Position numbers and translations under genes: made by a program
The notes under the pieces: generated by a model
Told to the model about the DNA's origin: nothing
The model's database searches: none
The model's input: only the letters and a program-made list of their open reading frames with translations
From: a virus
DNA length: 64,000 nucleotides
Reading direction: 5' to 3' (one strand)
IMG/VR virus record: IMGVR_UViG_3300021963_000094
Coordinates: 1 to 64,000 of that record
Shown: positions 1 through 50,319 of the stretch, piece by piece
How positions within the stretch are numbered: the stretch's first letter is position 1
Layout of the letters: each line of letters begins with the position of its first letter

Positions 1-1
1 C

Positions 2-301
2 GACACCGAATTAACCTGTGTTGCTTACATTGAGGAAAAAGTTATAGATGCATCTGATTTGGAATTCGCACATCTTCATTACACTCAGGGACATTCTGAA
101 AAGGACTATGTCGACGTAAAAAATCAAGATACTTTTTACGATGGGTTTAATATATTCAGAAAAAGAATCTCTAAGAATTTTCATCTTCCAGATAAACTGA
201 CAAAGGATAAAATACCTTCTTCTATACTAGAATGGATAGAGGAGAATCAGCAAAGCATTCCAGAGGAAGATCCGGGGGAAGAAGAACTGTTTATGGAATA
301 A
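2..301 (+). CDS. C-terminal part of a probable glycosyltransferase (GT2-like), truncated by the window start
   Basis: The frame is open from base 2 (DTELTCVAYIEEKVIDASDLEFAHLHY...). The DxELT...HLH pattern resembles the GT-A C-terminus, and the gene sits in a sugar-modification cluster. Confidence 0.45.
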   Translation, partial: DTELTCVAYIEEKVIDASDLEFAHLHYTQGHSEKDYVDVKNQDTFYDGFNIFRKRISKNFHLPDKLTKDKIPSSILEWIEENQQSIPEEDPGEEELFME

Positions 302-325
302 TAATATAATTAAAAAAAAAGATTA

Positions 326-1129
326 ATGGATTCCATAAAAATAAATTGGCACTGTAGTATTAATTTCGGAGATCAGTTAAACCCCTATCTTATTGAAAAA
401 CTATGGGGCATAAAATCTGTAAAGGTAAACGAGGGTGACGAATCTCCCCATATAATGATGCTAGGTTCCATATTAAACGAAGCTAATGATGGAACAATTG
501 TAATGGGTGCAGGCTTAGTTGCAAGTGATAGAATATTTACAGGAAATCCTAAATTAATTGGTCTTAGAGGAAAATTAACCAAAGATACATTAAAAGAAAG
601 GGGGTTTAATGTGGATGATGTTTTTCTTGGCGATCCCTCGATATTACTCCCCAAATTTTACAATCCCACTATTGAAAAAAAGTATGATCTAGGAATTATT
701 CCACATTTGGTTGATTACGAGAATGCTTTAAATATTTTTAGCGACACTGAAAGATTCCTAGTGATTGACCTAAGACTTGATGAAAATAATACAATAGAGA
801 AAGTAATAGATAAAATAAAATCATGCAAATGTACTATATCAAGTAGTCTTCATGGATTTATTGTGTCTCACGCGTATGGAATACCAGGAACTTGGTGTAA
901 ATTTTCTGATAATGTCATAGGGGACGGTTTTAAATTTATTGACTATCTTTCAGCTTATACTGATTTATATAATGAAATACCATTTTTTGATCTGAGGAAT
1001 TTAATAAAAGAGGAAATTGATATTAATAAAATAATAGAGCTATCATCTACCACTATAATAAATAATCAGATAGAAATAGAAAGGGTAAAAGCTGGATTAG
1101 AGTTAGGAAAACTACAATTAACAATATAA
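326..1129 (+). CDS. Polysaccharide pyruvyltransferase (ExoV/PS_pyruv_trans-like)
   Basis: Motifs NFGDQLNP, GSIL, RGKLT, GDP, GIIPH, SSSLHG and FKFxDY are typical of ExoV-type ketal pyruvyltransferases. Confidence 0.85.
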   Translation: MDSIKINWHCSINFGDQLNPYLIEKLWGIKSVKVNEGDESPHIMMLGSILNEANDGTIVMGAGLVASDRIFTGNPKLIGLRGKLTKDTLKERGFNVDDVFLGDPSILLPKFYNPTIEKKYDLGIIPHLVDYENALNIFSDTERFLVIDLRLDENNTIEKVIDKIKSCKCTISSSLHGFIVSHAYGIPGTWCKFSDNVIGDGFKFIDYLSAYTDLYNEIPFFDLRNLIKEEIDINKIIELSSTTIINNQIEIERVKAGLELGKLQLTI

Positions 1130-1142
1130 AAAAATTAAAAAA

Positions 1143-1715
1143 ATGGAAGAATTAGCATTCAATCAAGATATTTATTTGAGCGAAAAATTTTTGGAGATTA
1201 AAAATAAATACAATCTTGATACTGTTATAGAAACAGGAACATATCACGGTACAACTACTTCTTGGTTTTCTAAGCACTTTAAAGCTGTGTATACGATCGA
1301 ATCACAGCCTGCACACTTTGAAGAGGCAGCAAAAATAATTGGACGTATAGATAACATCAAAATGTCTTTAGGTGATAGCCCAGAATTCTTAAAAAAAATA
1401 CTTGCATCAATAGATGACAATAAGACTATTATATTCTTAGATGCGCATTGGTACACTAATCCTGTATTAGCAGAGCTAGATGCAATTAAAGAGTCCGGCA
1501 AATTACCTATTCTTGCTATTCATGATTTTATGGTACCAGGACATCCAGAATTTGGATATGACGAATATCCTGATCAGGGGATAGTTTATAACTGGGAATG
1601 GATAGAAGATCATATTAATTCAATCTATGGCGAAGATGGATACTCAAAAGATTATAACACAGAGGCAACCGGATCTATGAGAGGATGCCTATTTATATTT
1701 CCAAATAAAAAATAA
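1143..1715 (+). CDS. Class I SAM-dependent methyltransferase
   Basis: IETGTYHG (SAM motif I), GDS and FLDAHW motifs. Confidence 0.75.
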   Translation: MEELAFNQDIYLSEKFLEIKNKYNLDTVIETGTYHGTTTSWFSKHFKAVYTIESQPAHFEEAAKIIGRIDNIKMSLGDSPEFLKKILASIDDNKTIIFLDAHWYTNPVLAELDAIKESGKLPILAIHDFMVPGHPEFGYDEYPDQGIVYNWEWIEDHINSIYGEDGYSKDYNTEATGSMRGCLFIFPNKK

Positions 1716-1718
1716 CAA

Positions 1719-2405
1719 ATGATCGACGTAAACAATTATCAAAGGCAGGTACACAGCCAATCCGGTGAAGATGGTATATTAGAAAAAATATTTGAAACCC
1801 TAGGAATAAAAAATGGATGGTATTGTGAATTTGGTGCTGGAGATGGTAACTGGATTTGCAATACAAGAAAACTTAGAGAAGAAGGATGGAAAGGTGTTTT
1901 AATAGAAGGAGATAATGCATCATTCATAAATTTAAAAAACAACTATGGGACACATCCGGATGTTTCTATTATAGAATCATACATCAGTTGCGAGCCTGGT
2001 GAATCCCTTGATGATTTATTAGCTACTACACAAATTCCTAAAGACTTTGATTTTTTATCTATAGATGTGGACGGAAATGATCTATGGATATGGAAATCTT
2101 TAGAAACATATGAACCTAAAGTTATTGCGGTCGAGTATAATCCACACTACAATCCTGTTGACAGCCTAACTATAGAATACGATGCTAATCATAGATTCAA
2201 TAGTGATAATTATTATGGAGCTACCGCAGGTGCTTTTAATAAATTAGCAGAAGAGAAGGGGTATAAACTAATAGGATCGACAGGTGGTTTAAATCTGTTT
2301 TATTGTAAAAAAGAATTATCTGATCAATTTAAAGAACTTGACATCAATGAAGTATACCAAGGAAGCGGATGGCCACAGAGTGACAGGAAAATGGTTCAAT
2401 ATTAA
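1719..2405 (+). CDS. FkbM-like SAM-dependent methyltransferase
   Basis: SQSGEDGI, EFGAGDG, SIDVDGNDxW and EYN motifs, typical of glycan-locus FkbM/Methyltransf_21-like proteins. Confidence 0.8.
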   Translation: MIDVNNYQRQVHSQSGEDGILEKIFETLGIKNGWYCEFGAGDGNWICNTRKLREEGWKGVLIEGDNASFINLKNNYGTHPDVSIIESYISCEPGESLDDLLATTQIPKDFDFLSIDVDGNDLWIWKSLETYEPKVIAVEYNPHYNPVDSLTIEYDANHRFNSDNYYGATAGAFNKLAEEKGYKLIGSTGGLNLFYCKKELSDQFKELDINEVYQGSGWPQSDRKMVQY

Positions 2406-2418
2406 TTCCATAAAGGGA

Positions 2419-3162
2419 ATGGCAATAATTGGATTATCATATCTAGGAATTAACGAAATAGAAGTTCCCTACATGGGAGTTAAAAAGATAGACGGCAGAA
2501 CGAGAAAGCTTTATCTGACCTTTATTAATTATGATGTTAAGAAATGTGAGAGCCTCCTAAAAAAATATAGGATGGACATCAATACACTTCCTGACGATCT
2601 TAGGGTTTTTAATTACATGTGCTTTCTTACCGATTATAAAAGGTACAAATCTTTCTTTCCTGAATTATTTAGGATCAAAAAATCAGTACACACCTCGGGG
2701 TTTTTACAGCTGTGTGCACATAGAATCTACCAAAAAGAGGGGTACACCAAAGAGCTTTCCGAAATCTTAAGAAAAAGCATAGAATATTCCGAGACTAATA
2801 AGATACACAAATGGAGACTCAGTGGTAAATTTTTCACTGGTGTTTATTCAGGTAACAAGTCTTCTATTTTTAAAAATTTTATAGAATGCCTAAACATCAA
2901 CAGATTAGAAATTGATATGGATTGTTGGAGAGATAAAATAGTTTATATAGTCAACTGGTTAAAATTCTATTATCCCTTGGAATCTAAATCACACATAGAC
3001 AAGGTTAGGAATTATTTAATAGAAATGAATAATGAATCATACGAGAATCTTGTCCTTCCATATTTGACTATAAACGAGCCTGGAATATTAAACGAAGATA
3101 TATTTAAATCCTTAAGTTCTATAAAGATACTTCAAAGGATTGATTCTATAATTATAAAATGA
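2419..3162 (+). CDS. Hypothetical protein in glycan cluster
   Basis: Long ORF. The in-frame ATG at 2419 avoids the 68-nt overlap of the track start at 2338. ATGA coupling to fcl. Confidence 0.6.
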   Translation: MAIIGLSYLGINEIEVPYMGVKKIDGRTRKLYLTFINYDVKKCESLLKKYRMDINTLPDDLRVFNYMCFLTDYKRYKSFFPELFRIKKSVHTSGFLQLCAHRIYQKEGYTKELSEILRKSIEYSETNKIHKWRLSGKFFTGVYSGNKSSIFKNFIECLNINRLEIDMDCWRDKIVYIVNWLKFYYPLESKSHIDKVRNYLIEMNNESYENLVLPYLTINEPGILNEDIFKSLSSIKILQRIDSIIIK

Positions 3163-4100
3163 GTATGAAGAAAAAAATAGCAATATTTGGATCAACTGGT
3201 TTAGTTGGATCTAATATCGTTAAAAAAATAGACCTGGAGAAATATCAGGTATATTCTCCAACCAGGAAAGAACTTGACCTATTTGACCAAGAAAAAGTTT
3301 TAGATTGGTTTTTTAAAAACAGGGTAGAATATGTTATACTAGCAGCTGCCAGAGTAGGAGGTATAATTGCTAATTCAACATATCCAACTGAATTTCTGTA
3401 CGAGAATTTAACCATGCAGAACAATATCATGATGTCTGCATTAAAGAGCGATGTTGAAAATCTCATATTTCTTGGATCATCTTGCATCTATCCAAGAGAA
3501 TGCCCTCAGCCAATCAAAGAAGAATATCTTCTAACCGGTCCATTAGAGAAAACAAACAAATCTTATGCCTTAGCAAAAATAGCTGGTATTCAACTGTGTG
3601 ATTCCATAAGAGAACAGTATGGTAAAAACTACTATTCACTAATGCCCTGTAATCTTTATGGCCCTGGTGATAATTTTGATTTAGAGGCTTCCCATGTTAT
3701 CCCAGGGATGATTCGAAAGATTGAAAATGCTAGAGATAACAATCATCTTACTCTTAAGCTTTTAGGAACCGGAAGACCACTTAGAGAATTTCTTTATGTT
3801 GAAGATTTGGCAGAAGCTGTGATATTCATGCTGGAAAATTACAAAGGGAATGATGGATTAATTAACGTGGGAAGTGGATCCGAGATTTCAATCAAAGAAC
3901 TCGCAAATATAGTTGCTCGTGTCATAGACTACAAAGGTGATATACTTTTTGATACTGAGGGATTAGACGGAACCCCTAGAAAAGTAATGGATAATTCCAA
4001 GATAGAATCTATCGGATGGAAACCTAAAATGGATCTAGAGACAGGCATAACAGAAACAATTAGGTGGTATTGGGATAATAAAGATAACATTAGAAAATAA
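3159..4100 (+). CDS. fcl: GDP-L-fucose synthase
   Basis: GSTGLVGS, LAAARVGGI.AN, FLGSSCIYP, YALAK, MPCNLYGPGDNF and REFLYVED motifs. Confidence 0.95.
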   Translation: MSMKKKIAIFGSTGLVGSNIVKKIDLEKYQVYSPTRKELDLFDQEKVLDWFFKNRVEYVILAAARVGGIIANSTYPTEFLYENLTMQNNIMMSALKSDVENLIFLGSSCIYPRECPQPIKEEYLLTGPLEKTNKSYALAKIAGIQLCDSIREQYGKNYYSLMPCNLYGPGDNFDLEASHVIPGMIRKIENARDNNHLTLKLLGTGRPLREFLYVEDLAEAVIFMLENYKGNDGLINVGSGSEISIKELANIVARVIDYKGDILFDTEGLDGTPRKVMDNSKIESIGWKPKMDLETGITETIRWYWDNKDNIRK

Positions 4101-5105
4101 ATGAAGACAGCACTAATAACAGGAGTAAACGGCCAAGATGGATCTTATCTTGCAGAACTTCTTTTAGAGAAAGGATATCAGGTATATGGAACGATCAGAA
4201 GATCTTCTACCTTTAACTCTGGAAGAATAGAACACTTTAGGGAACATCCAAACTTTAAAAGATTTTATATAGATCTGACCGATCCCGGAAGTGTGTCCCA
4301 TATTATATCCGAATTAAAACCCGATGAGATTTATAATCTTGCTGCACAAAGCCACGTTAAGATATCATTTGAAATACCCAATTATACTGGACAAGTGGAT
4401 GCTATGGGAACTTTAAATGTGTTAGAAGCGATCAGAGCGCACTCCCCGGCATCTAAGTTATACCAAGCTTCAACATCTGAGTTATACGGTAAAGTCCAAG
4501 AAACCCCGCAAAAGGAAACAACCCCATTTTATCCCAGATCCCCTTATGGGGTAGCTAAATTATATGGATTTTGGATAGTGAAGAACTACCGGGAGTCTTA
4601 CAATTTATTCGCATGTAATGGTATTCTTTTCAATCACACATCGCCTAGAAGGGGTGAAAACTTTGTTGAGAAAAAAATAGTAGATGGATTATGCCAGATC
4701 AAAAAAGGTAGAGGTGGATTATTAACGCTTGGCAATTTATCAGCAAGAAGAGATATAGGTCATGCTAAAGAGTACGTTGAAGGTATGTGGAGAATGCTTC
4801 AGCAGGATTCACCGGAGGATTTTATCCTTGCCACTGGGGTAACATACTCAATTAAAGAGATGGTTGAAATGGTGTGTAAAAAACTAGAAATAGAAATCGA
4901 GTGGAGAAAAGATATTCAGGGAGATCTTGGTGTGGAGAAGGGAACCGGAAGAATTCTGATAGGAACAGATCCTAAATATTACAGACCAGCTGAAGTTGAA
5001 CTATTACAAGGAGATGCTTCTAAAGCTAAAGAAATACTTGGCTGGGAATCTAAATTAACTCTTTCCGATATACTTGACGAGATGATAGAAGAAGCTATGA
5101 AGTAG
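4101..5105 (+). CDS. gmd: GDP-mannose 4,6-dehydratase
   Basis: ALITGVNGQDGSYLAE, NLAAQSHV, YQASTSELYG, FYPRSPYGVAK and GILFNH motifs. Confidence 0.96.
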   Translation: MKTALITGVNGQDGSYLAELLLEKGYQVYGTIRRSSTFNSGRIEHFREHPNFKRFYIDLTDPGSVSHIISELKPDEIYNLAAQSHVKISFEIPNYTGQVDAMGTLNVLEAIRAHSPASKLYQASTSELYGKVQETPQKETTPFYPRSPYGVAKLYGFWIVKNYRESYNLFACNGILFNHTSPRRGENFVEKKIVDGLCQIKKGRGGLLTLGNLSARRDIGHAKEYVEGMWRMLQQDSPEDFILATGVTYSIKEMVEMVCKKLEIEIEWRKDIQGDLGVEKGTGRILIGTDPKYYRPAEVELLQGDASKAKEILGWESKLTLSDILDEMIEEAMK

Positions 5106-5328
5106 TTGTTGATACCTTATCTCCAGCTCCTAAAAGATCATCTACAGTTTTAACACTATATGTGGTTTGGCCTGGTACACCCCAATCTTTTTGTTCACCC
5201 CAATTGATGAATCCTTGATGTGTTATATGATTACCTGAATTATAAGAAAAATCGTGTTTTCCGTCTTTAGACGAAGACTGTTCAAATTCATCCATTGAAG
5301 AAATGTTTTTATATCCGTATTTTTCCAT
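5095..5328 (-). CDS. Small hypothetical protein
   Basis: 77-aa ORF coupled (TAATG) to the upstream minus-strand gene and convergent with gmd. Confidence 0.55.
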   Translation of the reverse strand: MEKYGYKNISSMDEFEQSSSKDGKHDFSYNSGNHITHQGFINWGEQKDWGVPGQTTYSVKTVDDLLGAGDKVSTTTS

Positions 5329-5891
5329 TATTTCTTTTTCTTTTTCTTGTTAGCTTTTCCCCTCTGATATAACGCCTTATCTCCCATTTTAGTAGTCTTA
5401 CCCCCAGTAACAAATGAGTTAACTCTAGCCATTGCCCATTGCTGTGGGGTTGTTCCTGGAATATGCCCTTTTTTCCAAGCAGCATATCCTCTTTTCCAAA
5501 CCTGCTTAAGTATACCCAACGGGAATCTTGTTTTGTCTGATTTGTTTTTAAGAGCTTTATTCACTGGGCTAGATGGCGAATCTACACCCTCATTGATATC
5601 CTCTGATTCTTTTAAATCGTTGTAAACCTCCCAAGCTGCTATTTCAACTGCTTCTAGAAATGCATCAAATCCCAGTAGTTCTAAACCCTCCCCATACATT
5701 TTCTGATATTTTTTTGTGTATTGGCTCTTTTTAGTCTCAACTGGTTTACCCTTCCCTGCTTTTTTTGATTTATAATCAGCATCCCATGGTCCATATGCAG
5801 ATGAATCATTATCTGCTTTATCCCCGTGTTTTTTGATTTCTCTTTTCATCACACCTGGATTTTTGGTGAGGTATTTCTTAGGTAGTTTCAT
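5328..5891 (-). CDS. Lys-rich hypothetical protein (DUF5824-like W..G..PG..QQWA.ARV.SF motif)
   Basis: GILKQVWKRGYAAWKKGHIPGTTPQQWAMARVNSF motif, highly basic termini, preceded by the late-promoter motif. Confidence 0.65.
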   Translation of the reverse strand: MKLPKKYLTKNPGVMKREIKKHGDKADNDSSAYGPWDADYKSKKAGKGKPVETKKSQYTKKYQKMYGEGLELLGFDAFLEAVEIAAWEVYNDLKESEDINEGVDSPSSPVNKALKNKSDKTRFPLGILKQVWKRGYAAWKKGHIPGTTPQQWAMARVNSFVTGGKTTKMGDKALYQRGKANKKKKKK

Positions 5892-5897
5892 ATTTCT

Positions 5898-5907
5898 CTA
5901 TATATTC
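5898..5907 (-). promoter_or_regulatory. Putative late promoter (GAATATATAG)
   Basis: Copy of the recurrent RATATATA motif, 6 nt before the ATG at 5891. Confidence 0.55.
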
Positions 5908-5908
5908 C

Positions 5909-5935
5909 GAAATAAATTCTTTTAATTCTCTATAA
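5909..5935 (+). promoter_or_regulatory. Putative non-late promoter GAAA-N18-TATAA
   Basis: Same two boxes and spacing as the site upstream of gp32 (55127-55153). Confidence 0.35.
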
Positions 5936-5972
5936 TAAATTGGAATAAAGAAAATAAAGCCTTCATGGCCAC

Positions 5973-6602
5973 ATGTTTAAAAAGCTCAAGAAAATAATAC
6001 AAATTATGACAGATAAAGATCTTTCTGAAATCAAGGAAGAGTATTCCAATTTTTCGTATCAATGGATTAAAGGCGATAACCTCTCACAAACGCAACATTT
6101 TGAGGATTTAATTGAGGAGGGTGGCAGAAAATACATTCTTTTCACTGATAAAACCAGGATATCTTTAGATCTGCTAGACGAGTATATGATTAAGGTAGAA
6201 AAAGGATTTGAGGAGATAATTCCAAAATCCGATCCTAACGTCTTAAATCAATCACAGACCGAACAACCATCTGGCAGAGGGGTTAAGACAAGAGAGGTTC
6301 AAGAAATCAGACCACAGTCTAGAGACGAAAATCCAATATTTGCTCTACTCTCTAAACAGAAGGAAAACTGGGTAGATGTCGATTTAAAACTTAGCATCAA
6401 TCTTCCTCCTAGAAGCCTATGGGACGTTTTAATGGGATCTTTTGAAGATGCGGAGAAAGATATCTTAGAATACGTTACGAAAGACCTTGATATAGAGGTA
6501 GTTAGACAATCCCTGAGGGAATCCATAAAGGATATATATAAAAAGCAGAAAACAATTACATCCACAAAAAATGTCAGATCCCAAGATTCTATTCCAGAAT
6601 AA
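5973..6602 (+). CDS. Hypothetical protein
   Basis: 209-aa ORF with phage-like codon usage; no recognisable motif. Confidence 0.7.
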   Translation: MFKKLKKIIQIMTDKDLSEIKEEYSNFSYQWIKGDNLSQTQHFEDLIEEGGRKYILFTDKTRISLDLLDEYMIKVEKGFEEIIPKSDPNVLNQSQTEQPSGRGVKTREVQEIRPQSRDENPIFALLSKQKENWVDVDLKLSINLPPRSLWDVLMGSFEDAEKDILEYVTKDLDIEVVRQSLRESIKDIYKKQKTITSTKNVRSQDSIPE

Positions 6603-7089
6603 TTACATCCAGGTGATAGAAAACAAAGACAGGGTTGGTATCAAGCAGATAAACCCGTCCGTGATGATTCTTCCATATACAGTGGATGAAAACGGAAATC
6701 CTAAATCTATTGGTCTGATCTCAGAACCCTCTAATATCAAAGAGGAAAGAATGAGCCAAACCATAATAACAGGATCTCCTGAAAAATCCGATGTTGATAT
6801 CTTAGCAACCGCCAAGAGAGAATTAAAGGAGGAATCGGGATACGACGTGGAAGACACAGAAAGATGGGAATTTCTTGGAAATATCCAATCCTCTAAATTA
6901 GTAGTAAACGGAAACCCAGCATTTGGTGTGGACGTTACTGGAATAAAAAGGGGAGAAAAATCAGGTGACGGATCGGAAAGCGAAAAGAATAGCAAATTTT
7001 CTCTAGTGTCTCTTAATGATGCATTAAATGTAGATGATGCTTTAATAGCATGTTTATTTTTAAAAATATTTCAAAACAAATTAATTTAA
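6571..7089 (+). CDS. NUDIX hydrolase
   Basis: Nudix box G.....D........RELKEESGY. Confidence 0.85.
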   Translation: MSDPKILFQNNYIQVIENKDRVGIKQINPSVMILPYTVDENGNPKSIGLISEPSNIKEERMSQTIITGSPEKSDVDILATAKRELKEESGYDVEDTERWEFLGNIQSSKLVVNGNPAFGVDVTGIKRGEKSGDGSESEKNSKFSLVSLNDALNVDDALIACLFLKIFQNKLI

Positions 7090-7095
7090 ATTTAT

Positions 7096-7377
7096 ATGAA
7101 TTTTCCTTCGAGAAGAGAAAGAAGAGCAATGGCAAAAGCAATGGGGCTAACAGGAAAGAAAGAATCCCTAGCTAAAATGTCAGAGCGATTTAAACGTTCC
7201 AATGAGTTTGGAAAAATGATCCATTTACAGCATTTACAAAATTTAGAAAATACTAGAATTAATTCAGAAAAAATTGAGGAAACAGAAGAAAACACGCCAC
7301 AGGCACCAACTGATTCGCCAGATTGGGGATTAGAAGACTTCAAACAACAAATCATAAGTGGAGAAAATCCAGAATAA
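7096..7377 (+). CDS. Hypothetical protein (SRRERR N-terminal motif)
   Basis: 93-aa ORF in the operon with a basic N-terminus. Confidence 0.6.
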   Translation: MNFPSRRERRAMAKAMGLTGKKESLAKMSERFKRSNEFGKMIHLQHLQNLENTRINSEKIEETEENTPQAPTDSPDWGLEDFKQQIISGENPE

Positions 7378-7696
7378 GAAAGCCTCAATAAAAATACATC
7401 TTACTTCTCTTAGTTATCGTGAAATTAAAAAATCACTGCCAGATAACGAGAAGGTGTCCTATATAGATGTAACCAAGATTATTTCCGAAAGCTTTGGGGA
7501 TAAAGATCTTAGTGATATCCAATATTGGATCCTAAATCAAATGATAGTTAAGAAAATAGAGTCTTTTAAGACCACTAATCCTGCAAAAATCTTTATAACT
7601 ATCAAGGAACCCTCCAGAAATTCAATTAAATCTTTTAAAGACCTCCTCCAAGAGTTTAAAATCGGACCCGCTCAAATAGAGATATACAGCATTTAA
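7358..7696 (+). CDS. Hypothetical protein
   Basis: 112-aa ORF with a GTG start overlapping the previous gene. Confidence 0.55.
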   Translation: MEKIQNKKASIKIHLTSLSYREIKKSLPDNEKVSYIDVTKIISESFGDKDLSDIQYWILNQMIVKKIESFKTTNPAKIFITIKEPSRNSIKSFKDLLQEFKIGPAQIEIYSI

Positions 7697-7718
7697 TTTA
7701 AGAGGTATCCCGTTTCGG

Positions 7719-7728
7719 GAATATATAA
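7719..7728 (+). promoter_or_regulatory. Putative late promoter (GAATATATAA)
   Basis: Recurrent motif at the head of the baseplate operon. Confidence 0.55.
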
Positions 7729-7749
7729 CTTAAATAATAATTGTAAGCT

Positions 7750-9615
7750 GTGGGATTATTTGATTTTGTAACGAATGTCAGAAACGAGGCACTCATAAGA
7801 TCTACAACAATAACCAATGTTGTTTCCAATACAGGTGGATTCAAAGACGATCTTGTGGATCGATCTGAAGCTGTTAAGAAGAACATTTACAGCTTTAACT
7901 CCGATAAGGAATACGGAGTTTTTGAAAACCAAAGTGATGCTGTTACTAGGTTGCCTTCTTCATTATTTTACGAAGCTCAGTCTTCTGAGGACGGAAGGCT
8001 TGGTCTATTTAACTATCATGTTATAGGGGATATAAAGGCTGGTTTAGGGGGAGGTGGAAAGTTTAACTATATTAAATCCGAAACCTATGCTAACAATCAG
8101 AAGGTAACCCCGGAGATAAGTAGAAACCCTACAGCCCAAGCAATAATTAAGACCACAACATCTAACGGGGCATATCTAAATCCTAGTAGCCCTTATGTTT
8201 CCCAGCCTTATAACGTTAAAGACTTTATATTTTGTAAGCACTACGGCGTTATTCCAAATAACAGGATGATAACATTAAGAAGATTTCCTACACCGGTTAT
8301 GGACAACTTAAGAGTGCCTACGAGCGCTCCTAGAATAGAGCCTAGCCAACAAGGTGATGATATAAAAGGAAACTTTGTTAACAATGACGGGCTTAGTCGA
8401 AATCAAATGATTAAAGACGGAGCAGCCCTACCAATTGCACAGGCAATTACATATTTTGGAGGAGACACAGGAAACACCTTGGATTCAATATTGAATGTTG
8501 AAACCGGATTAAAATGGGAATCAAAGGGGCAAAAAACAAAAATGTCAGCCGAGGGAAATGATAAAGGATTTCTATCTAGTACATATGGGAAATACCTAGA
8601 AGCTGTTGTGGGTGCTTCCACTTTTGATGGCCTTAACAAAATAAGTAACGGAATAGGGGTGGTCACAGATCCTGATAATAGAGAATTACAAATAAGAAGA
8701 ACTCTCTTAGAAAAATTAACAACCGGGGACGGGCCTCTAAGTCAGAGAATCTTCGTTGATGTTAACACTGTTAATAGCATGTATGTAAGAGGTGTAGGAT
8801 TTACGGGGGGTGAGCAAACTTTCTCTTTGAAATTCACGTATAGTCTAACTAGCGTTGGCGAGGTAAACAGTAGAATGATGTTTATTGACTTGTTTGCAAA
8901 TCTTTTAGCAATAGGAAGTGATTATGGTAAATTTTTAGCCCCACAGCTTCTTGTGAATTCTAATAGGCAGGGAATAGGATTTCCTGGAGGATCCAAAGGG
9001 TATGTTAAGCACCTGACAAATCCCGTTGAATTTCTAAATGACATGATGAAGCTTAAATTCGGGGAAGAGGTTAAAAAGAAGATAAAAGGATTAGAGGGAA
9101 CACTTGCAAAAGCACAAACTGAGCTTTCGGGATTAAGTAATGGCAAACCACTTTCTAAGAATGGTCAGTTATATAAAACACTCACTGTTATGCTAACCAG
9201 CCAAATGCTTAATGACTTATACTATGAGCCTATTATGCTTTCTGGTTATCCAACAGGGGAATGGCACGTTGTAGTTGGAAATCCATTAAATCCGATAGCA
9301 ATGATGGGTAACCTAATTTGTGAAAAGGTTAAAATTAATTTCAACAACACCCTAGGACCAGATGACTTTCCAACAGAGATGACTGCAGTTTTCTCGATGA
9401 AAGCAGCGAGAACAAAACATAGAGGAGACTTTGAAAGCATGTTTAACAGAGGTAACGGTAGACTTTATCTTGGTAAATTCCCGATCTCTGATGCATCCAG
9501 AAATGCTCAGGTTGGAGCAACAACTGGAATTGACACTCAGGGAACTATTGGTAAGAATGTGAGAGACGGTGCTTTTGGATTAGCAGCGAACTTTGGCCAA
9601 CAACTAGGATTATAA
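7750..9615 (+). CDS. Probable tail-tube cap/initiator-type baseplate protein (T4 gp48-like position)
   Basis: First gene of the gp53/hub/gp5 block. The C-terminal GEWHVVVGNPLNP...GPDDFPTE segment is compatible with a tube fold. Assignment is mainly from synteny. Confidence 0.4.
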   Translation: MGLFDFVTNVRNEALIRSTTITNVVSNTGGFKDDLVDRSEAVKKNIYSFNSDKEYGVFENQSDAVTRLPSSLFYEAQSSEDGRLGLFNYHVIGDIKAGLGGGGKFNYIKSETYANNQKVTPEISRNPTAQAIIKTTTSNGAYLNPSSPYVSQPYNVKDFIFCKHYGVIPNNRMITLRRFPTPVMDNLRVPTSAPRIEPSQQGDDIKGNFVNNDGLSRNQMIKDGAALPIAQAITYFGGDTGNTLDSILNVETGLKWESKGQKTKMSAEGNDKGFLSSTYGKYLEAVVGASTFDGLNKISNGIGVVTDPDNRELQIRRTLLEKLTTGDGPLSQRIFVDVNTVNSMYVRGVGFTGGEQTFSLKFTYSLTSVGEVNSRMMFIDLFANLLAIGSDYGKFLAPQLLVNSNRQGIGFPGGSKGYVKHLTNPVEFLNDMMKLKFGEEVKKKIKGLEGTLAKAQTELSGLSNGKPLSKNGQLYKTLTVMLTSQMLNDLYYEPIMLSGYPTGEWHVVVGNPLNPIAMMGNLICEKVKINFNNTLGPDDFPTEMTAVFSMKAARTKHRGDFESMFNRGNGRLYLGKFPISDASRNAQVGATTGIDTQGTIGKNVRDGAFGLAANFGQQLGL

Positions 9616-46317: not shown

Positions 46318-48585
46318 ATGCCGAAAATAAACATATTAAATATTCTTGCAGGGGATCAACAGGCAATACTTGTAGACAAGGTAAACTACAACTTTGATCA
46401 AATTTTAACTGCAGGTGGTGGACCACAAGGCCCTCAAGGCATCAGAGGTGCTACTGGACCTATAGGACCTCAAGGAATACAGGGACCAACCGGCCCACAG
46501 GGACTAAAAGGAGCTAGATGGTACGTTCAGGTAACAGCACCTGATTCCGAGAATATTTTTCACACCCCATGGGGAGAACCAGAATTAGGCGATTATTGGT
46601 TAGCTGGTGCTGACAATGATAATCCCTATGGAATTTATGTTTATAATGAAACTAGCCCAGGAACTTTAAGCTGGGAATATTCTGGTGTATTCTTTGCTAA
46701 TACCTCAGCATTTACTCCGGTTGACGACATAAACCAAACGGACGAGAGAGCATTAATACATGACACATTGTTCAGTAATAGATATTCTCTAGTTTTAAGT
46801 GATTATGGAGTTACTGGATCCGAAACAGATTTTAAATACAGAGAGACCAATAAATTTGGTATTAACGGTGAAAGGTCCAAGCTTAAGATAGCTACAGATT
46901 TCAATTCCCCATTCTTATCTCTATTATCATTTGGTAGAGCTAATTTGGATGATGGTAACAGATCCAATACATCCTATAGCTTAAATAGAAATCCTAGATT
47001 TAGATGGAAGAATCTAACAGGAAGCGATCATCATATAGAATTCTTTTCTCCGGTCGGTGATTACCATGTAACAACCCCTAAGTTTGTTATCGGGGGTGCA
47101 ACTGCTGCTTTTTCTATCACAGGTTATAATACAACTGGAGATATAGCTCAGCTTAGAACAAATGGAGGTACATATTTCTTTGGATTTGATAAAGATGGAT
47201 ATGCCACTAAAGGTATGCCTTATAATCCAACAATAAGTGCAGGTATCCTTTCTTCCAGTCCTAATAATTTGGATTATTATGAAGAGGGTGATATGAGATC
47301 ATTCCTCCAATTAAAAACATACTGTAATACATCAGAATGGAGTGGAGCACCAGATTCTACGTATAAAAACGTGAAAGCCAGATATACCAGAATAGGTAAT
47401 TTAGTTCATGTTGATTTTACAATTAAAATAGATGGACTTTCTGCTACTGTTCCTCAGTATAACGATTTCGGGGGTGTACTATTCATTAAAGGATTTCCTT
47501 ATGATCCGGACTTTACGTTAAGATCTGGTGAAAGTGCTAATGCAACATCATCTGATATACCTAGACCTTCGATGCCAGCGATACCACTCAAGGCATCTAT
47601 AGGAGATTCAACCCTGGTTGATCTCTCTGGTGCATTTTTTAACTATACAACAAGTACTAGTGAAACTGAAACAAGATTGGTTCTTTATAAAAATAATGGG
47701 TCTTTATTTAACGTTAGCAATCTAACAACTGCTACTTCATATTTATATGGTAGTTTTAGTTACAGCACACAAAGCCCAACTAGAATCAGTAGCATAGTTA
47801 CCCCAAGTGGATATTGTACAGGACTTTTACCAGTACCAACTCCAGCACCAACGCCAGCGCCAACACCGGCTCCGACACCGGCTCCAACGCCAGCGCCAAC
47901 ACCGGCGCCTGATTATAGTTTCGAATGGGAATATGCTAATTATGTTGCAGGACCAACACCAGCACCAACACCAGCACCGACGCCAGCACCAACGCCAGCA
48001 CCAACGCCAGCGCCTCCTGGCCCAACGCCAGCGCCTACACCGGCTCCGACGCCAGCACCAACGCCAGCACCAACGCCAGCGCCAACGCCAGCACCGACGC
48101 CAGCACCAACACCAGCACCGACGCCAGCACCAACACCTGCTCCTGCAGCATGTAACATAAGCGATCCAAGCTATGTGACTGTGAGTACACCTAGTACATA
48201 CGGATCAATTTACGTGTCAACTGGTAGAAATATAAGATTGAGTGTCTTTGGAGGAGCTACGTACGGAGGTAATAATAGAGGCTTCCTTACTGTAACAGGG
48301 GTAAGCGGAACACCTACACCTAGTCCAAATGCTATAAGTGTTTATGCAGCAAACTTTGCTAATGCATCGGATAATCTTGGATTACCTGCTGGTTATTACA
48401 GTTTCTATCTGTACATGACACCACAAGGATCTTCTGGACATAATGCTGGTATATCTTGCGGTGATGTTATAACATATACACCAACACCTAGCCCAACACC
48501 TAGCCCAACCCCTAGTCCAACACCTAGTCCTGGCGGAGGCGGCGGAGGCGGAGGCGGCGGAGGTAGCATCCCGCAGTTTGAGTAA
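46318..48585 (+). CDS. Tail fibre with collagen-like segment, DYYEEG/YTRIGN module, (PTPA)n arrays and poly-Gly tail
   Basis: D......K.N.NF N-terminus, 11 G-X-Y triplets, LDYYEEG...[12 protein letters not shown] fibre motif and Pro/Thr repeats. Confidence 0.75.
46420..46518 (+). repeat. Collagen-like (G-X-Y)11 repeat
   Basis: [33 protein letters not shown]. Confidence 0.9.
47836..48144 (+). repeat. 12-bp coding tandem repeat (CCAACGCCAGCA-type) encoding (PTPA)n, in two blocks
   Basis: Blocks at 47836-47910 and 47953-48144, separated by [14 protein letters not shown]. Confidence 0.95.
48481..48564 (+). repeat. (PTPS)n followed by poly-Gly
   Basis: CCAACACCTAGC units followed by a GGC/GGA run of about 11 Gly. 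Confidence 0.9.
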
Positions 48586-48592
48586 ATAATAA

Positions 48593-49237
48593 ATGGATCC
48601 AATTATGAATAGAGAGGTAAAACCGGGAGAAAATTTTCTATACCAAAGAGGGGTAGTTTCAACTACCTTTCCTTGGGATAGACCATCATACACATCGGTA
48701 AAGAATTATTTAGAATATCTAAAAACCGAATCTACTGTGTTTGACGAATTTGAAATTTATCTGGCAGGTGGAATATTATATGATTTCAATAATACATGGG
48801 ACGTAGACATATTTCTGGTTGGGGGATCTCAGACCGATGCAAGAATAGAGGAGCAACTTAATTTCATGACCGACGTTGCTTTAAATAAATTTTTCCTGCT
48901 TGTTGATGTTTCCTGGTATGAAAGAAAAACCTCAGATTATGAGTACAGCACAATGGAGGCTAATAACTTTCTTTCTGAGGATATCACCTATAAAAAGATA
49001 GGACATTTTAAAAAGGAAATGGGGGGTGAGGCAATCGAATATGATATGAGAATCATCCCGGATATAGAAACTATAGGTGATTATTTGGTAAAGGGGAGTT
49101 TTAATGGATTTAGGCACAAAGATAAAATGATAAATAAGGTTAAAGATCATCCAAATCAATCTGTAATAACAACATTTAGTGCAGAGGAATTTCTATTGAG
49201 TGACGAGGATCATTTTTTGAATAATACTAATAGATAA
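48593..49237 (+). CDS. Pol-beta-superfamily nucleotidyltransferase-like protein
   Basis: YLAGG......TWDVDIFL (hG[GS]...DxD motif) plus a later VDV strand supplying a third Asp. Confidence 0.6.
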
Positions 49238-49242
49238 ACAAA

Positions 49243-50319
49243 ATGCCGTTCAACGTAAATATAAAATTTTCATCTGCCGGGAACATCACGAGTCAATCGT
49301 ACGAGATATCCGCAAGCTCATCAGAGAATGGGAGTTATAGTACAACTGGGGTTCAACCTAGTACTATAGCAAGAGCAGATCTTCTTGGAGGAACTTATAT
49401 TCAGGTTCCTGATGGTTCTACATGGATCAAAGGTGATAATGTTACTCAGGGAGCACCAGCTGGTACAAAAAAAATAGCAATAGCAAATATTCCATCAGCA
49501 CCAACGCCAGCACCAACGCCAGCACCAACACCTGAGCCAACACCGGCTCCTCCTGGACCAACGCCAGAGCCAACGCCAGCGCCAACACCGGCTCCAACAC
49601 CAGCGCCTACACCGGCTCCGACACCAGCACCAACGCCAGAGCCAACGCCAGCGCCAACACCGGCTCCAACACCAGCGCCTACACCGGCTCCGACACCAGC
49701 ACCAACGCCAGCGCCTACACCAGCACCGACGCCAGCACCAACACCACTTGGTAGCATACTTCTTCTTGATGGTAGCCTTGGGTATTACACTGCAGACATA
49801 TTAGATAGCGGACAAGACTATTACAGCGGAGGAGGATTCTGCTACATTTCACAAGGTTCCTATTATAATGCAGGGGATGTTACCGGAAAAACACAAATAT
49901 TCGGAACTGCTTGTAATTCTTCTGGTGGACAATGTAATGACTGTACTGGGGTATCACCATCACCAACGCCAGCACCAACACCTGCTCCGACGCCAGCACC
50001 AACTCCAGCACCTCTTTCGATAATATTCAGATCTCTGGGATTAAGTGCATTTAATAGCCACTGTGGAGAAAACTATTTAATTAGTGCCGATTTATGGGTG
50101 ATTACAACATCGATACCTAGCTTATATTATACAACAGTTTATAGTGATGGAAGTTATACTCCTTTCAATGGATCTGATCTATGGTATGCAGTTTCGAATG
50201 GCGATCCAGCAAACACAGAGACCGCTCCTTACCAGGTTATTCAGATTGATTCGTCTGGTGTTGTTACGAGCGTTCAAACAGTTACATCATGCGGTGGCGG
50301 TGGAGGAGCTATAAATTAA
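49243..50319 (+). CDS. Second (PTPA)n mucin-like fibre/decoration protein
   Basis: Ig-like N-terminal domain, two Pro/Thr arrays, Cys-containing small domains and C-terminal GGGGG. Confidence 0.7.
49501..50013 (+). repeat. (PTPA/PTPE)n coding repeats including an exact 72-bp tandem duplication
   Basis: Blocks at 49501-49746 and 49957-50013; 49561-49632 is identical to 49633-49704. Confidence 0.95.

Follow-up and report, generated by a model that had tools for sequence, protein, structure and literature searches.

Sugar-gene islands of the large T4-like cyanomyoviruses P-SSM2 and S-SCSM1 have been interpreted as serving host LPS and cell-wall synthesis and modification, and the S-SCSM1 island contains gmd, fcl, fucosyltransferases and glycosyltransferases (PMC9602691, PMC7824862). 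The island described here, at positions 2-5105 of a 64,000-nucleotide stretch of viral DNA (the window), belongs to a family that resembles them in having gmd and fcl, a fucosyltransferase and several soluble glycosyltransferases, with no export genes; its Gmd and that of the cyanophages share 57-60% identity. The lineage is different, since the source genome is that of an uncultured freshwater (lake) jumbo myovirus related to PAU, PTm1 and the Lak huge phages, as a preliminary description of the window had held for its phage origin, and the host group is probably the Bacteroidota. Unlike the cyanomyovirus islands, the present one has pyruvyltransferase- and FkbM-type genes, is placed downstream of a late-type motif, with the head block on one side and the baseplate block on the other, and shows serotype-like cassette exchange among close relatives.

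Capsid glycosylation of the chlorovirus PBCV-1 involves GMD, GMER, A064R (GT-GT-MT) and A061L, and the fibril glycogene clusters of mimiviruses are clade-specific, with methyl-, pyruvyl- and glycosyltransferases (PMC9614988). Nucleotide-sugar synthesis, soluble glycosyltransferases, methyltransferases, a PF04230-type pyruvyltransferase and clusters varying by clade are common to these giant viruses and the window phage. However, chemical analysis has established what the giant-virus glycans and their acceptors are, while the glycan of the window phage is predicted from genes; the host here is bacterial, and the sequence relation is limited to common enzyme families. In mycobacteriophages Che8, Corndog and Myrna, virion O-glycosylation was reportedly shown by experiment by Freeman et al. 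in 2023, and it is echoed in PMC11256854. As in the window phage, glycosyltransferase genes lie in or beside the structural module and virion proteins are the proposed target, but the mycobacteriophage systems have one to few glycosyltransferases, no such nucleotide-sugar pathway and actinobacterial hosts.

O-antigen and capsule serotype loci are similar to the island in their conserved flanks, variable centre of glycosyltransferase and modifying-enzyme genes, and gmd-fcl sugar-supply module, whereas no initiating phosphoglycosyl transferase, Wzx or membrane protein was found in the island or its 79-86%-complete relatives. In the same wider phage group, LR756500.1, LR756501.1 and Lak-B7 have glycan islands of their own, carrying respectively a PF04230 gene 42% identical to 326-1129 inside a GT/MT island, a gmd 61% identical to the window's with Methyltransf_24 genes on its flanks, and a PF04230 domain fused to a GT92/GT2 domain. 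The sugar chemistry of such islands is wholly different (Kdo pathway and sulfotransferase in one, an N-formyl-perosamine-like set in another), each has just one gene in common with the window, and PTPx arrays were found in none of the three genomes.

Genes of the island in the window

The genes at 2-5105 (Table 1) form a single, closely packed + strand unit at the left end of the window, with intergenic gaps of 24, 13 and 3 nt and otherwise overlapping or abutting genes. The contig begins within the island, and these last seven genes are the right-hand portion of a glycan-assembly island of roughly 9-10 kb. A 77-aa ORF (5095-5328, -) separates its end from the convergent DUF5824 gene. TM-like segments were not found in any island protein of the four island variants checked. 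The evidence supports a single unit for glycan building that supplies its own GDP-L-fucose.

Table 1. Features of the island, the candidate promoter copy beside it and the fibre region (window positions).
Feature	Positions	Strand	Basis or remark
GT-A-like (GT2-like) glycosyltransferase, C-terminal 99 aa of 257 aa	2-301	+	full-length homologues
Polysaccharide pyruvyltransferase-family protein, short (267 aa)	326-1129	+	PF04230 PS_pyruv_trans
Class-I SAM methyltransferase, Methyltransf_24-like (probable)	1143-1715	+	PF13578 below cut-off, phrog_8156
FkbM-family methyltransferase-like protein	1719-2405	+	PF05050 Methyltransf_21
Orphan all-alpha (TPR/solenoid-like) protein	2347-3162 (start 2347 or 2419)	+	predicted model
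GDP-L-fucose synthase (Fcl, GMER)	3159-4100	+	NF047922, PDB alignment
GDP-mannose 4,6-dehydratase (Gmd)	4101-5105	+	TIGR01472, PDB alignment
ATATATA[AG] copy	5898-5905	-	6 nt before DUF5824 gene (5328-5891, -)
Fibre 1: collagen-like N-terminal segment, linkers of (PTPA)n type, small domains at the C-terminus	46318-48585	+	translation
214-aa ORF between both PTPA proteins, GG...WDVD motif	48593-49237	+	no Pfam match
Fibre 2: 358 aa, long (PTPA/PTPE)n arrays	49243-50319	+	translation
817-aa late protein, Pro/Ala-rich linker, not PTPA	51462-53915	+	translation

All genes named in the preliminary description are present on the + strand, and the complete GDP-fucose pair claimed there was confirmed by profile matches and full-length PDB matches. 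The best NCBIfam match of Fcl is the GDP-L-fucose synthase equivalog NF047922 (E 8e-124; 413 bits, under the cut-off of 500), and it aligns with PDB GDP-fucose synthases (E 2.5e-89) including the GSSCIYP, YAxAK and SHV motifs. Gmd scores 474 bits with TIGR01472 (cut-off 415) and aligns with PDB GMD (E 3.7e-121) including ASTSELYG and SPYGxAKLY. Both genes are syntenic in seven relatives, with gmd 81-85% identical. Judging from these matches, Gmd and Fcl can convert GDP-mannose to GDP-L-fucose.

The other assignments stood in part. The gene described as GT-like has GT-A-like homologues, but the window holds only its C-terminal end and the catalytic N-terminal part falls outside the contig. Full-length homologues (P0013-P0022, 72-97% identity) have a DDTD motif and sub-threshold PF00535 (GT2) matches, with E from 2e-4 to 4e-3; in a low-confidence model of the 257-aa transferase (pLDDT 51), the N-terminal ~95 residues superpose on GT-A transferases such as AvpGT, TarP, DPMS and GtrB. 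The protein called an ExoV-like pyruvyltransferase matches PF04230 above the cut-off (E 1e-14, 55.6 bits against 25.3); nearly all of its 173 homologues are PF04230 proteins too, and those from Flavobacteriaceae are 34-43% identical; it is 48-52% identical to a gene of the G010 island. Transfer of pyruvyl groups is predicted from family membership. Of the two SAM methyltransferases announced, 1719-2405 exceeds the PF05050 cut-off (E 7.6e-7, 29.8 bits against 22.7) and is below threshold for TIGR01444, while 1143-1715 is only a probable methyltransferase because its 24.7 bits with PF13578 are under the cut-off of 26.3. The latter also matches phrog_8156 'methyltransferase' (E 7.5e-5) and contains a motif-I-like VIETGTYHG, with only weak PDB methyltransferase matches.

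The orphan gene was missing from the earlier gene list. It has only close homologues (71-95% identity, without Pfam domains), its predicted model is entirely helical (pLDDT 65.5), and fold and sequence searches gave no significant match. It is absent from the compared island regions of G002, G003, G004 and G010 and, judged on these regions, is specific to the window's cassette variant.

The island in close relatives and a candidate late promoter

Whole islands were recovered from four IMG/VR relatives, G002 (245 kb), G003, G004 and G010. The left arm, which encodes a pair of GT-A-like paralogues along with a GT10 fucosyltransferase and a protein of the DUF5672 family, and the right arm, fcl-gmd, are conserved, and between these flanks the variable middle is occupied by four cassette types, differing among phages with 74-95% identical structural proteins. 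By sequence comparison, close relatives exchange parts of the island in the manner of a serotype locus. GT10 (PF00852) was found in 5/5 relatives whose contigs extend 5.4-6.5 kb upstream of gmd, just past where the window's contig ends. Relatives thereby contribute GT10 and at least four more transferase-like genes to the unit. Bac_transf, Glycos_transf_4 and Polysacc_synt genes, as well as WecA-type initiating transferase and Wzx flippase genes, were not found in G002 (86% complete) or G010 (79% complete), which at this completeness is not proof of absence. In G002, the major head protein gene is found ~11 kb upstream of the island, and the baseplate block follows the island directly.

The motif ATATATAA (ATATATA[AG]) precedes late and virion genes of the window at a distance of 5-29 nt. 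Eight of its nine window copies are at this distance upstream of a same-strand gene start (positional P ~1e-15) in DNA that is 96.7% coding, among them copies 16 nt upstream of fibre 1 and 5 nt upstream of the 817-aa late protein, and the window's SSB, primase and helicase genes are not preceded by it. No copy lies within 1-5105, and the start of the window's own island is off the contig; in G002, G003, G004 and G010, the second gene of the island has a copy 17-18 nt upstream. It is a candidate late promoter, 'late' being a label given solely by the genes it precedes, and the island looks late-expressed, among particle genes.

Possible destinations of the glycan

The membrane-free island, the missing initiating and flippase genes, the capsid-baseplate location and the motif favour a late, cytoplasmic glycan most likely placed on the particle, a tentative explanation with a little less than an even chance of being right. 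The same circumstances (motif, position, soluble proteins, no Bac_transf, WecA-type or Wzx genes) lend support to the virion glycan coat suggested in the preliminary description, but not to its link with the Pro/Thr fibres. The mimivirus fibril glycogene clusters and the capsid glycosylation of PBCV-1 (PMC9614988) are precedents for such a coat. Against placement on the particle, no protein-directed (initiating) glycosyltransferase was identified, and PF04230 and FkbM enzymes usually work in lipid-linked polysaccharide pathways. In addition, the missing export genes are not diagnostic of a virion target, since cyanomyovirus islands lack them as well.

Fibres 1 and 2 were proposed as acceptors. 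The span 46318-50319, previously listed for a PTPA array, consists of three ORFs, with both (PTPA)n proteins inside; the array claimed for 51462-53915 is a Pro/Ala-rich linker instead, in a protein for which family searches gave no match. The collagen segment reported earlier was found as a Gly-X-Y stretch in fibre 1 (residues ~33-66), matching tail-fibre PHROGs. Fibre 1 homologues occur in all clade members, while the 214-aa ORF and fibre 2 are restricted to the subclade of the window, G001 and G002.

An improbable version of the virion reading has the glycan O-linked to threonines of the (PTPA)n linkers at 46318-50319, giving mucin-like fibres. Pro/Thr linkers are known to be O-glycosylated in proteins secreted by bacteria and eukaryotes, the fibres are preceded by late motifs, and the island and the fibre 1 linker are found together in every clade member covering both regions. 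This co-occurrence is a single inherited state, because the structural proteins of this single genus-level clade are 69-95% identical, and it is explained by shared ancestry. PTPx arrays are absent from 12/12 complete, more distant relatives with glycan genes of their own (three with PF04230 genes and one with gmd in its own sugar island). Moreover, (PTPA)n linkers accompany two different cassettes (window, G002) and (PT)n two others (G004, G010), and therefore linker type tracks phylogeny and not cassette type; G007 carries only a short PSPT linker, PT linkers also act as mere flexible spacers between fibre domains, and no protein O-glycosyltransferase was identified. A specific connection between the island and the Pro/Thr-rich fibres is not supported, and these fibres are one acceptor candidate among several. 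Rather unlikely, but less so, is remodelling of the host envelope, an alternative already named in the preliminary description. The soluble enzymes would feed one of the host's undecaprenyl-linked pathways (O-antigen, CPS or protein O-glycan), with the host providing the initiation, flipping and polymerisation steps. Fucose, methyl and pyruvyl groups would thus reach the cell surface or the debris left by lysis, blocking superinfection or progeny adsorption to debris. Jumbo-phage and cyanophage sugar clusters are read in this way (PMC7824862, PMC9602691). PF04230, FkbM, GT2 and GT10 are typical families of surface-polysaccharide loci, among cellular proteins the pyruvyltransferase is closest to 'polysaccharide pyruvyl transferase' proteins of Flavobacteriaceae, the cassette exchange looks like that of O-antigen/CPS loci, and LR756500.1 carries KpsS/C-like and CMP-Kdo genes, normally acting on lipid acceptors. 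However, the candidate late promoter and virion-region position are ill-suited to a surface change needing export before lysis, and at least six transferase-like genes point to a whole glycan and not a modification, yet an initiating or export gene is absent.

Very unlikely, and the least probable of these readings, is DNA hypermodification, also named as an alternative in the preliminary description, in which the island would build an oligosaccharide on hydroxymethylated pyrimidine in the phage's own DNA as a defence against restriction. Oligosaccharide-type thymidine hypermodification exists in SP-15, YerA41 and Carin-5 (PMC12686479), PF04230-like homologues in Carin-5 and Tunturi_5 are located among DNA-metabolism genes, and G002 encodes a divergent member of the thymidylate-synthase superfamily that, among solved structures, matches CMP 5-hydroxymethylase best (E 4e-4). 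This hydroxymethylase-like gene is, however, ~80 kb away from the island, which stands among virion genes behind the late-type motif and not beside the motif-free SSB, primase and helicase genes, and fucose and pyruvate are not mentioned in part of the literature on DNA glycan hypermodification. A TET/JBP search made in this context had a silent control.

For the preferred late glycan on the particle, a ATATATAA-type promoter would drive transcription of the island together with the virion genes, and its soluble enzymes would build, in the cytoplasm, a glycan that contains fucose and is O-methylated and, in the window's variant, pyruvylated as well. No phage gene would take part in lipid-carrier initiation or in export. 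The finished glycan would then be attached to one or more virion proteins. Since cassettes swap in a serotype-like manner and the island looks late among particle genes, a strain-variable sugar coat of the virion is plausible in these phages.

Genes of the glycan island

Seven near-contiguous plus-strand ORFs occupy positions 2-5105, and family and PDB matches confirmed the glycan gene set listed there in the preliminary description, including the complete gmd and fcl pair. Gmd passed the TIGR01472 equivalog with 474 bits (cut-off of 415), scored 451 bits with PF16363 and aligned over its full length with solved GMDs, its GVNGQDGS, ASTSELYG and SPYGVAKLY motifs being matched in the human enzyme (6gpj). 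The residue roles in Gmd are the SDR catalytic Thr/Glu and YxxxK, with GxxGxxG as the NADP site. Fcl reached 413 bits with NF047922, under the equivalog cut-off of 500, and this was still its best family by more than 330 bits. Over residues 4-312, it matched solved GDP-fucose synthases with E values of 2.5e-89 (8du0) and 4.9e-88 (E. coli, 1bsv), with the motifs GSSCIYP, YALAKIAG (YxxxK) and SHVIP aligned. Judged from sequence, the GDP-fucose pathway is real.

The short PF04230 protein scored 55.6 bits compared with a gathering score of 25.3, and covered profile positions 83-275 of 280. Nearly all its homologues belong to PF04230, those from phages being annotated differently as pyruvyl or galactosyl transferases, and no sequence match was found among solved structures. 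By family membership, it is a predicted pyruvyltransferase, which would form a sugar ketal from PEP. Of the two methyltransferases described previously, the FkbM-like one was above the cut-off (PF05050, 29.8 bits versus 22.7, over the short stretch of residues 95-142; TIGR01444 sub-threshold), whereas the Methyltransf_24-like one was just under it (PF13578, 24.7 bits versus a gathering score of 26.3), although backed by a PHROG methyltransferase match (E 7.5e-5) and a motif-I-like sequence. The glycosyltransferase-like gene is represented in the window by just its C-terminal 99 residues, the protein being 257 aa long in near-identical phages; the GT-A resemblance comes from full-length homologues, which contain a DDTD motif and score 17.5-21.7 bits with PF00535 (cut-off 23.3). 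In the model of a full-length homologue, pLDDT was low, and the confident N-terminal third superposes on GT-A folds (E 5e-5).

The preliminary description did not mention the gene at 2347-3162, an orphan modelled as all-helical with close homologues only. It gave no Pfam, PDB-sequence or Foldseek match and is not recognisable as a glycosyltransferase. Its conserved N-terminus (MKYTKEADGHRV...) is encoded in a different frame across the last 59 nt of the FkbM-like gene (2347-2405), and 2347 and 2419 are the candidate translation starts. The downstream Nudix gene was also considered as a GDP-mannose hydrolase, but its best solved matches were weak ones to NudF-type proteins, and no link to the pathway was made.

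Coordinates and composition of the features in the window and in related phages (G-numbers, close IMG/VR relatives; L-numbers, fetched stretches of relatives)
Feature	Location	Content
GT-A-like gene, C-terminal part	2-301	
PF04230 gene	326-1129	
Methyltransf_24-like gene	1143-1715	
FkbM-like gene	1719-2405	
Orphan gene	2347-3162	
fcl	3159-4100	
gmd	4101-5105	
Nudix gene	6571-7089	
Candidate late-promoter motif	5898-5905 (-); 6534, 7721, 22710, 46294, 51449, 59454, 62924 (+)	ATATATA(A/G), ATATATAA site
Fibre 1	46318-48585	755 aa
214-aa ORF	48593-49237	GG...WDVD motif
Fibre 2	49243-50319	
817-aa late protein	51462-53915	
G002 record		245 kb, 86% complete
G010 record		219 kb, 79% complete
G002 and G003 island, first genes in order		195-aa and 376-aa paralogues (DxD-type motifs), GT10 fucosyltransferase (PF00852), 212-aa ORF, DUF5672
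G002 and G003 island, genes that follow		242-aa ORF, GT1-like, MT24-like, SDR, 209-aa ORF, fcl, gmd
G010 island		left arm as in G002/G003; inserted pyruvyltransferase (48-52% identical to that of the window), then ORFs of 192, 170 and 232 aa, read by eye as methyltransferase-like, hexapeptide-acetyltransferase-like and FkbM-like
G004 island (fourth variant)		255-aa and 203-aa ORFs, read by eye as GT17-like and GT2-like
RimK-like ATP-grasp gene, G002	L048:9175-10662 (-)	phrog_2599, 'ribosomal protein S6 glutaminyl transferase'; late-type motif
Palindromes before the island	L048:13720-13843; L050:13320-13443	GGAAACTTTCC; TTGTTATC-n-GATAACA
Thymidylate-synthase-superfamily gene, G002	L052:1090-1869 (C1:103166-103945)	
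Fibre-1 homologues	L034:19367-22501; L031:19289-22696	1044-1135 aa
LR756500.1 (462 kb), ten-gene island	L003:6498-16319	GT1, KpsS/C-like Capsule_synth, two methyltransferases, sulfotransferase, GT2, PF04230, KdsA, KdsB, SIS-domain KdsD-like
LR756501.1 (735 kb)	L022:7712-13901	gmd between two Methyltransf_24 genes; DegT aminotransferase, N-formyltransferase
Lak megaphage B7	L023:11404-13611	PF04230 domain fused to GT92/GT2 domain in one 735-aa ORF

Phage lineage and island variants

The IMG/VR record is 74.5 kb long, the window being its first 64 kb, and since CheckV estimates it as only 26% complete, the genome would be of jumbo size. At about 35% GC, the window contains genes for gp5-like and baseplate-wedge proteins, a head-tail adaptor, a gp32-type SSB, primase and helicase. 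According to a conserved structural protein (1186 aa), its relatives are the huge phage LR756500.1 (32% identity), Flavobacterium phage MaF61, Tenacibaculum phages PTm1, PTm5 and pT24, Chryseobacterium phages MA9V, Sphingomonas phage PAU and the Lak megaphages. The host phylum is probably Bacteroidota, consistent with the Flavobacteriaceae homologues of the pyruvyltransferase.

Since the contig begins inside the island, the rest of it was sought in relatives. Viral contigs searched with an alignment of the pyruvyltransferase or the orphan protein gave no locus, and the same kind of search in metagenome contigs had one 1.9-kb JGI contig as its sole match; the exact window cassette is also carried on ENA/Logan contigs of 52-63 kb. 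With the 1186-aa protein, 12 IMG/VR records were gathered at 69-95% identity. In seven of these relatives, the synteny with the window covers fcl (73-95% identity) and gmd (81-85%), as well as all the downstream genes within the fetched stretches, namely the DUF5824 gene, a gene of 209 aa, the Nudix gene and those of the baseplate block. Gene content upstream of fcl varies. In G004, two more ORFs show weak BLAST similarity to MT24-like and FkbM-like proteins. Further glycosyltransferases or glycosyltransferase-like genes, which the preliminary description had proposed to look for upstream, are present in the islands of the relatives as GT10 and as GT-A-like and GT1-like ORFs, where the GT-A-like label of the 195-, 212-, 242- and 209-aa ORFs was given solely from DxD-type motifs, by eye.

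GT10 was found in all five relatives whose contigs extend 5.4-6.5 kb upstream of gmd. Since the window extends only 4.1 kb, its own GT10 and left arm probably lie just off the contig end. The GT-A protein type of the window (full-length homologue P0013) had no match in any of the 12 records, and the orphan is absent from the compared island regions of G002, G003, G004 and G010; without counterparts in the searched relatives, these two genes mark the window cassette as a separate variant.

In the more distant huge phages LR756500.1, LR756501.1 and Lak-B7, the sugar neighbourhoods differ from one another. By its gene content, the LR756500.1 island is a Kdo-containing glycan pathway, and the set in LR756501.1 looks like a GDP-N-formylperosamine-type pathway. 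The Lak-B7 fusion ORF stays open only with TAG decoded as Gln, at 15 codons.

Late-type motif, island position and Pro/Thr fibres

In the window, whose DNA is 96.7% coding, eight out of nine ATATATA[AG] copies precede a gene start on the same strand by 5-29 nt (positional P ~1e-15). The genes behind the motif include fibre 1, the 817-aa protein and a 621-aa protein that opens the baseplate block, and no copy was found in front of the SSB, primase and helicase genes of the window. The motif is therefore a strong candidate for a late promoter with very short leaders. In G002, G003, G004 and G010, it appears 17-18 nt before the second island gene, with another copy about 124-132 nt before the first. 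Positions 1-5105 of the window contain no copy, and no terminators separate the closely packed genes in this stretch; in positions 1-8000, scans for sigma-70-type promoters and terminators were at or below shuffle expectation. Since motif and terminators are both missing from 1-5105, the visible genes would be the distal portion of one late transcript.

The glycosyltransferase genes of the same four relatives are placed within the late/structural module, in the order major head protein block, island and baseplate block. In G002, about 11 kb with motif-preceded genes separate the major head protein gene from the island downstream of it, and the baseplate block follows the island. Two palindromes kept in G002 and G010 in the intergenic stretch before the island may be operator sites. 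In addition, the G002 RimK-like gene sits between the capsid gene and the glycan island, and in Tunturi_5 a similar gene is found two genes (~1 kb) upstream of its PF04230 homologue.

The preliminary description proposed mucin-like Pro/Thr fibres as the acceptors of the glycan. Pro/Thr proteins do exist, but not with the boundaries reported: 46318-50319 comprises three ORFs, with (PTPA)n arrays in the first, which has a collagen-like N-terminus, and in the third, while the linker of the 817-aa protein is Pro/Ala-rich instead. The 214-aa ORF, which lies 7 and 5 nt from the flanking (PTPA)n genes, had no Pfam match; together with fibre 2, it was found only in the window, G001 and G002. Fibre 1 is syntenic across the whole clade, and in more distant members it contains a tail-collar-like insertion, a (PT)n linker and then a variable C-terminal domain. 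The fibre of the window does not contain the insertion. Different members have unrelated C-terminal domains past the PT linker, which is what exchangeable receptor-binding tips would look like.

Island and PT arrays occur together in every clade record covering both regions, and since these records are close kin, they count as a single observation. No PTPx array was found across 12 complete, more distant relatives with a pattern of three PTPx units and at most one mismatch, which shorter or Ser-rich linkers such as the short PSPT stretch of G007 fibre 1 escape. Sugar genes are nevertheless present among these array-free phages, with PF04230 in LR756500.1, Lak-B7 and Lak-A1 and a true gmd in LR756501.1, and within the clade two cassettes go with (PTPA)n and two others with (PT)n. 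Given the kinship, the array-free carriers and the mismatch between cassette and linker, co-occurrence does not support a specific link, and the proposed connection to the fibres is unsupported. A role as spacers between fibre domains would account for the PT linkers equally well.

Destination of the glycan

No TM-like segment was detected among about 40 island proteins of the four variants. PF02397 (Bac_transf), PF00953 (WecA-type) and PF01943 (Wzx-type) were absent from G002 and G010, with control genomes positive, an absence that applies to records 79-86% complete and to a window whose own upstream part is missing. Whereas Wzx/Wzy- or ABC-dependent polysaccharide loci contain an initiating transferase, a flippase or transporter and membrane proteins, the island, in these 79-86%-complete relatives, does not. 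The late-type motif, the position in the virion region and the exclusive presence of soluble enzymes together suggest a late, cytoplasmic assembly line, circumstantial evidence that would fit a glycan on the particle better than one that is exported. No transferase was found that could be recognised as specific for protein acceptors. It is proposed tentatively, a little short of an even chance, that jumbo phages of Bacteroidota synthesize a methylated and pyruvylated glycan with fucose and cover their particles with it, and that its structure switches between close relatives through exchange of the central part of an island that is expressed late and free of membrane proteins. Modification of the host LPS or capsule against superinfection is how comparable islands of jumbo phages and cyanophages are read in the literature, without experimental proof, examples being P-SSM2 and S-SCSM1, the latter with gmd, fcl and fucosyltransferases (PMC7824862, PMC9602691). 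The enzyme families and the serotype-like swapping are consistent with a role at the host envelope, but the late-type motif, the genomic location and the lack of an initiating or export gene speak against it, and it is considered rather unlikely.

Glycosylation of the phage DNA by the island product has a precedent in the oligosaccharide-type modification of thymidine (PMC12686479), and in Carin-5 and Tunturi_5, PF04230-like genes are found amid DNA-metabolism genes. G002 also has a gene for a divergent member of the thymidylate-synthase superfamily; the protein has a PC-type catalytic motif, and its best solved match, a weak one (E 4e-4), is a CMP 5-hydroxymethylase. A hydroxymethylated pyrimidine may be present in the phage DNA. 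However, this gene is about 80 kb from the island, the island itself is far from replication genes, and neither fucose nor pyruvate is mentioned in the two DNA-glycan papers searched; DNA is considered an unlikely target.

Phage gmd-fcl islands are already known, with 84 phage records at E <= 1e-40, mostly from cyanophages. Mimiviruses contain glycogene clusters, specific to each clade, in which methyl-, pyruvyl- and glycosyltransferases occur, and PBCV-1 encodes a capsid glycan machinery (PMC9614988). Particular to this island are a PAU/Lak-related jumbo lineage whose host is probably a member of Bacteroidota, conserved flanks around a variable centre with four variants among near-identical phages, and a candidate late-type promoter combined with a position in the structural region.

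It is established that giant eukaryotic viruses and a few actinobacteriophages make their own virion glycans. To our knowledge, the same is not established for any phage with a Gram-negative host; the sugar islands of such phages are routinely labelled host 'LPS genes' without a test. This clade is a compact, testable case: its island encodes only soluble enzymes, follows a candidate late-type promoter, lies between the head and baseplate genes and comes with four interchangeable cassettes. If the glycan were on the host envelope or on DNA, a lytic jumbo phage would be using a serotype-like locus for exclusion or anti-restriction. If it coats the particle instead, bacterial viruses would have an equivalent of the glycan coats of chloroviruses and mimiviruses, one that varies in a serotype-like manner; the annotation of such auxiliary genes would change, and there would be consequences for how phages adsorb, for their stability and their losses to grazing in lakes, and for their antigenic variation.
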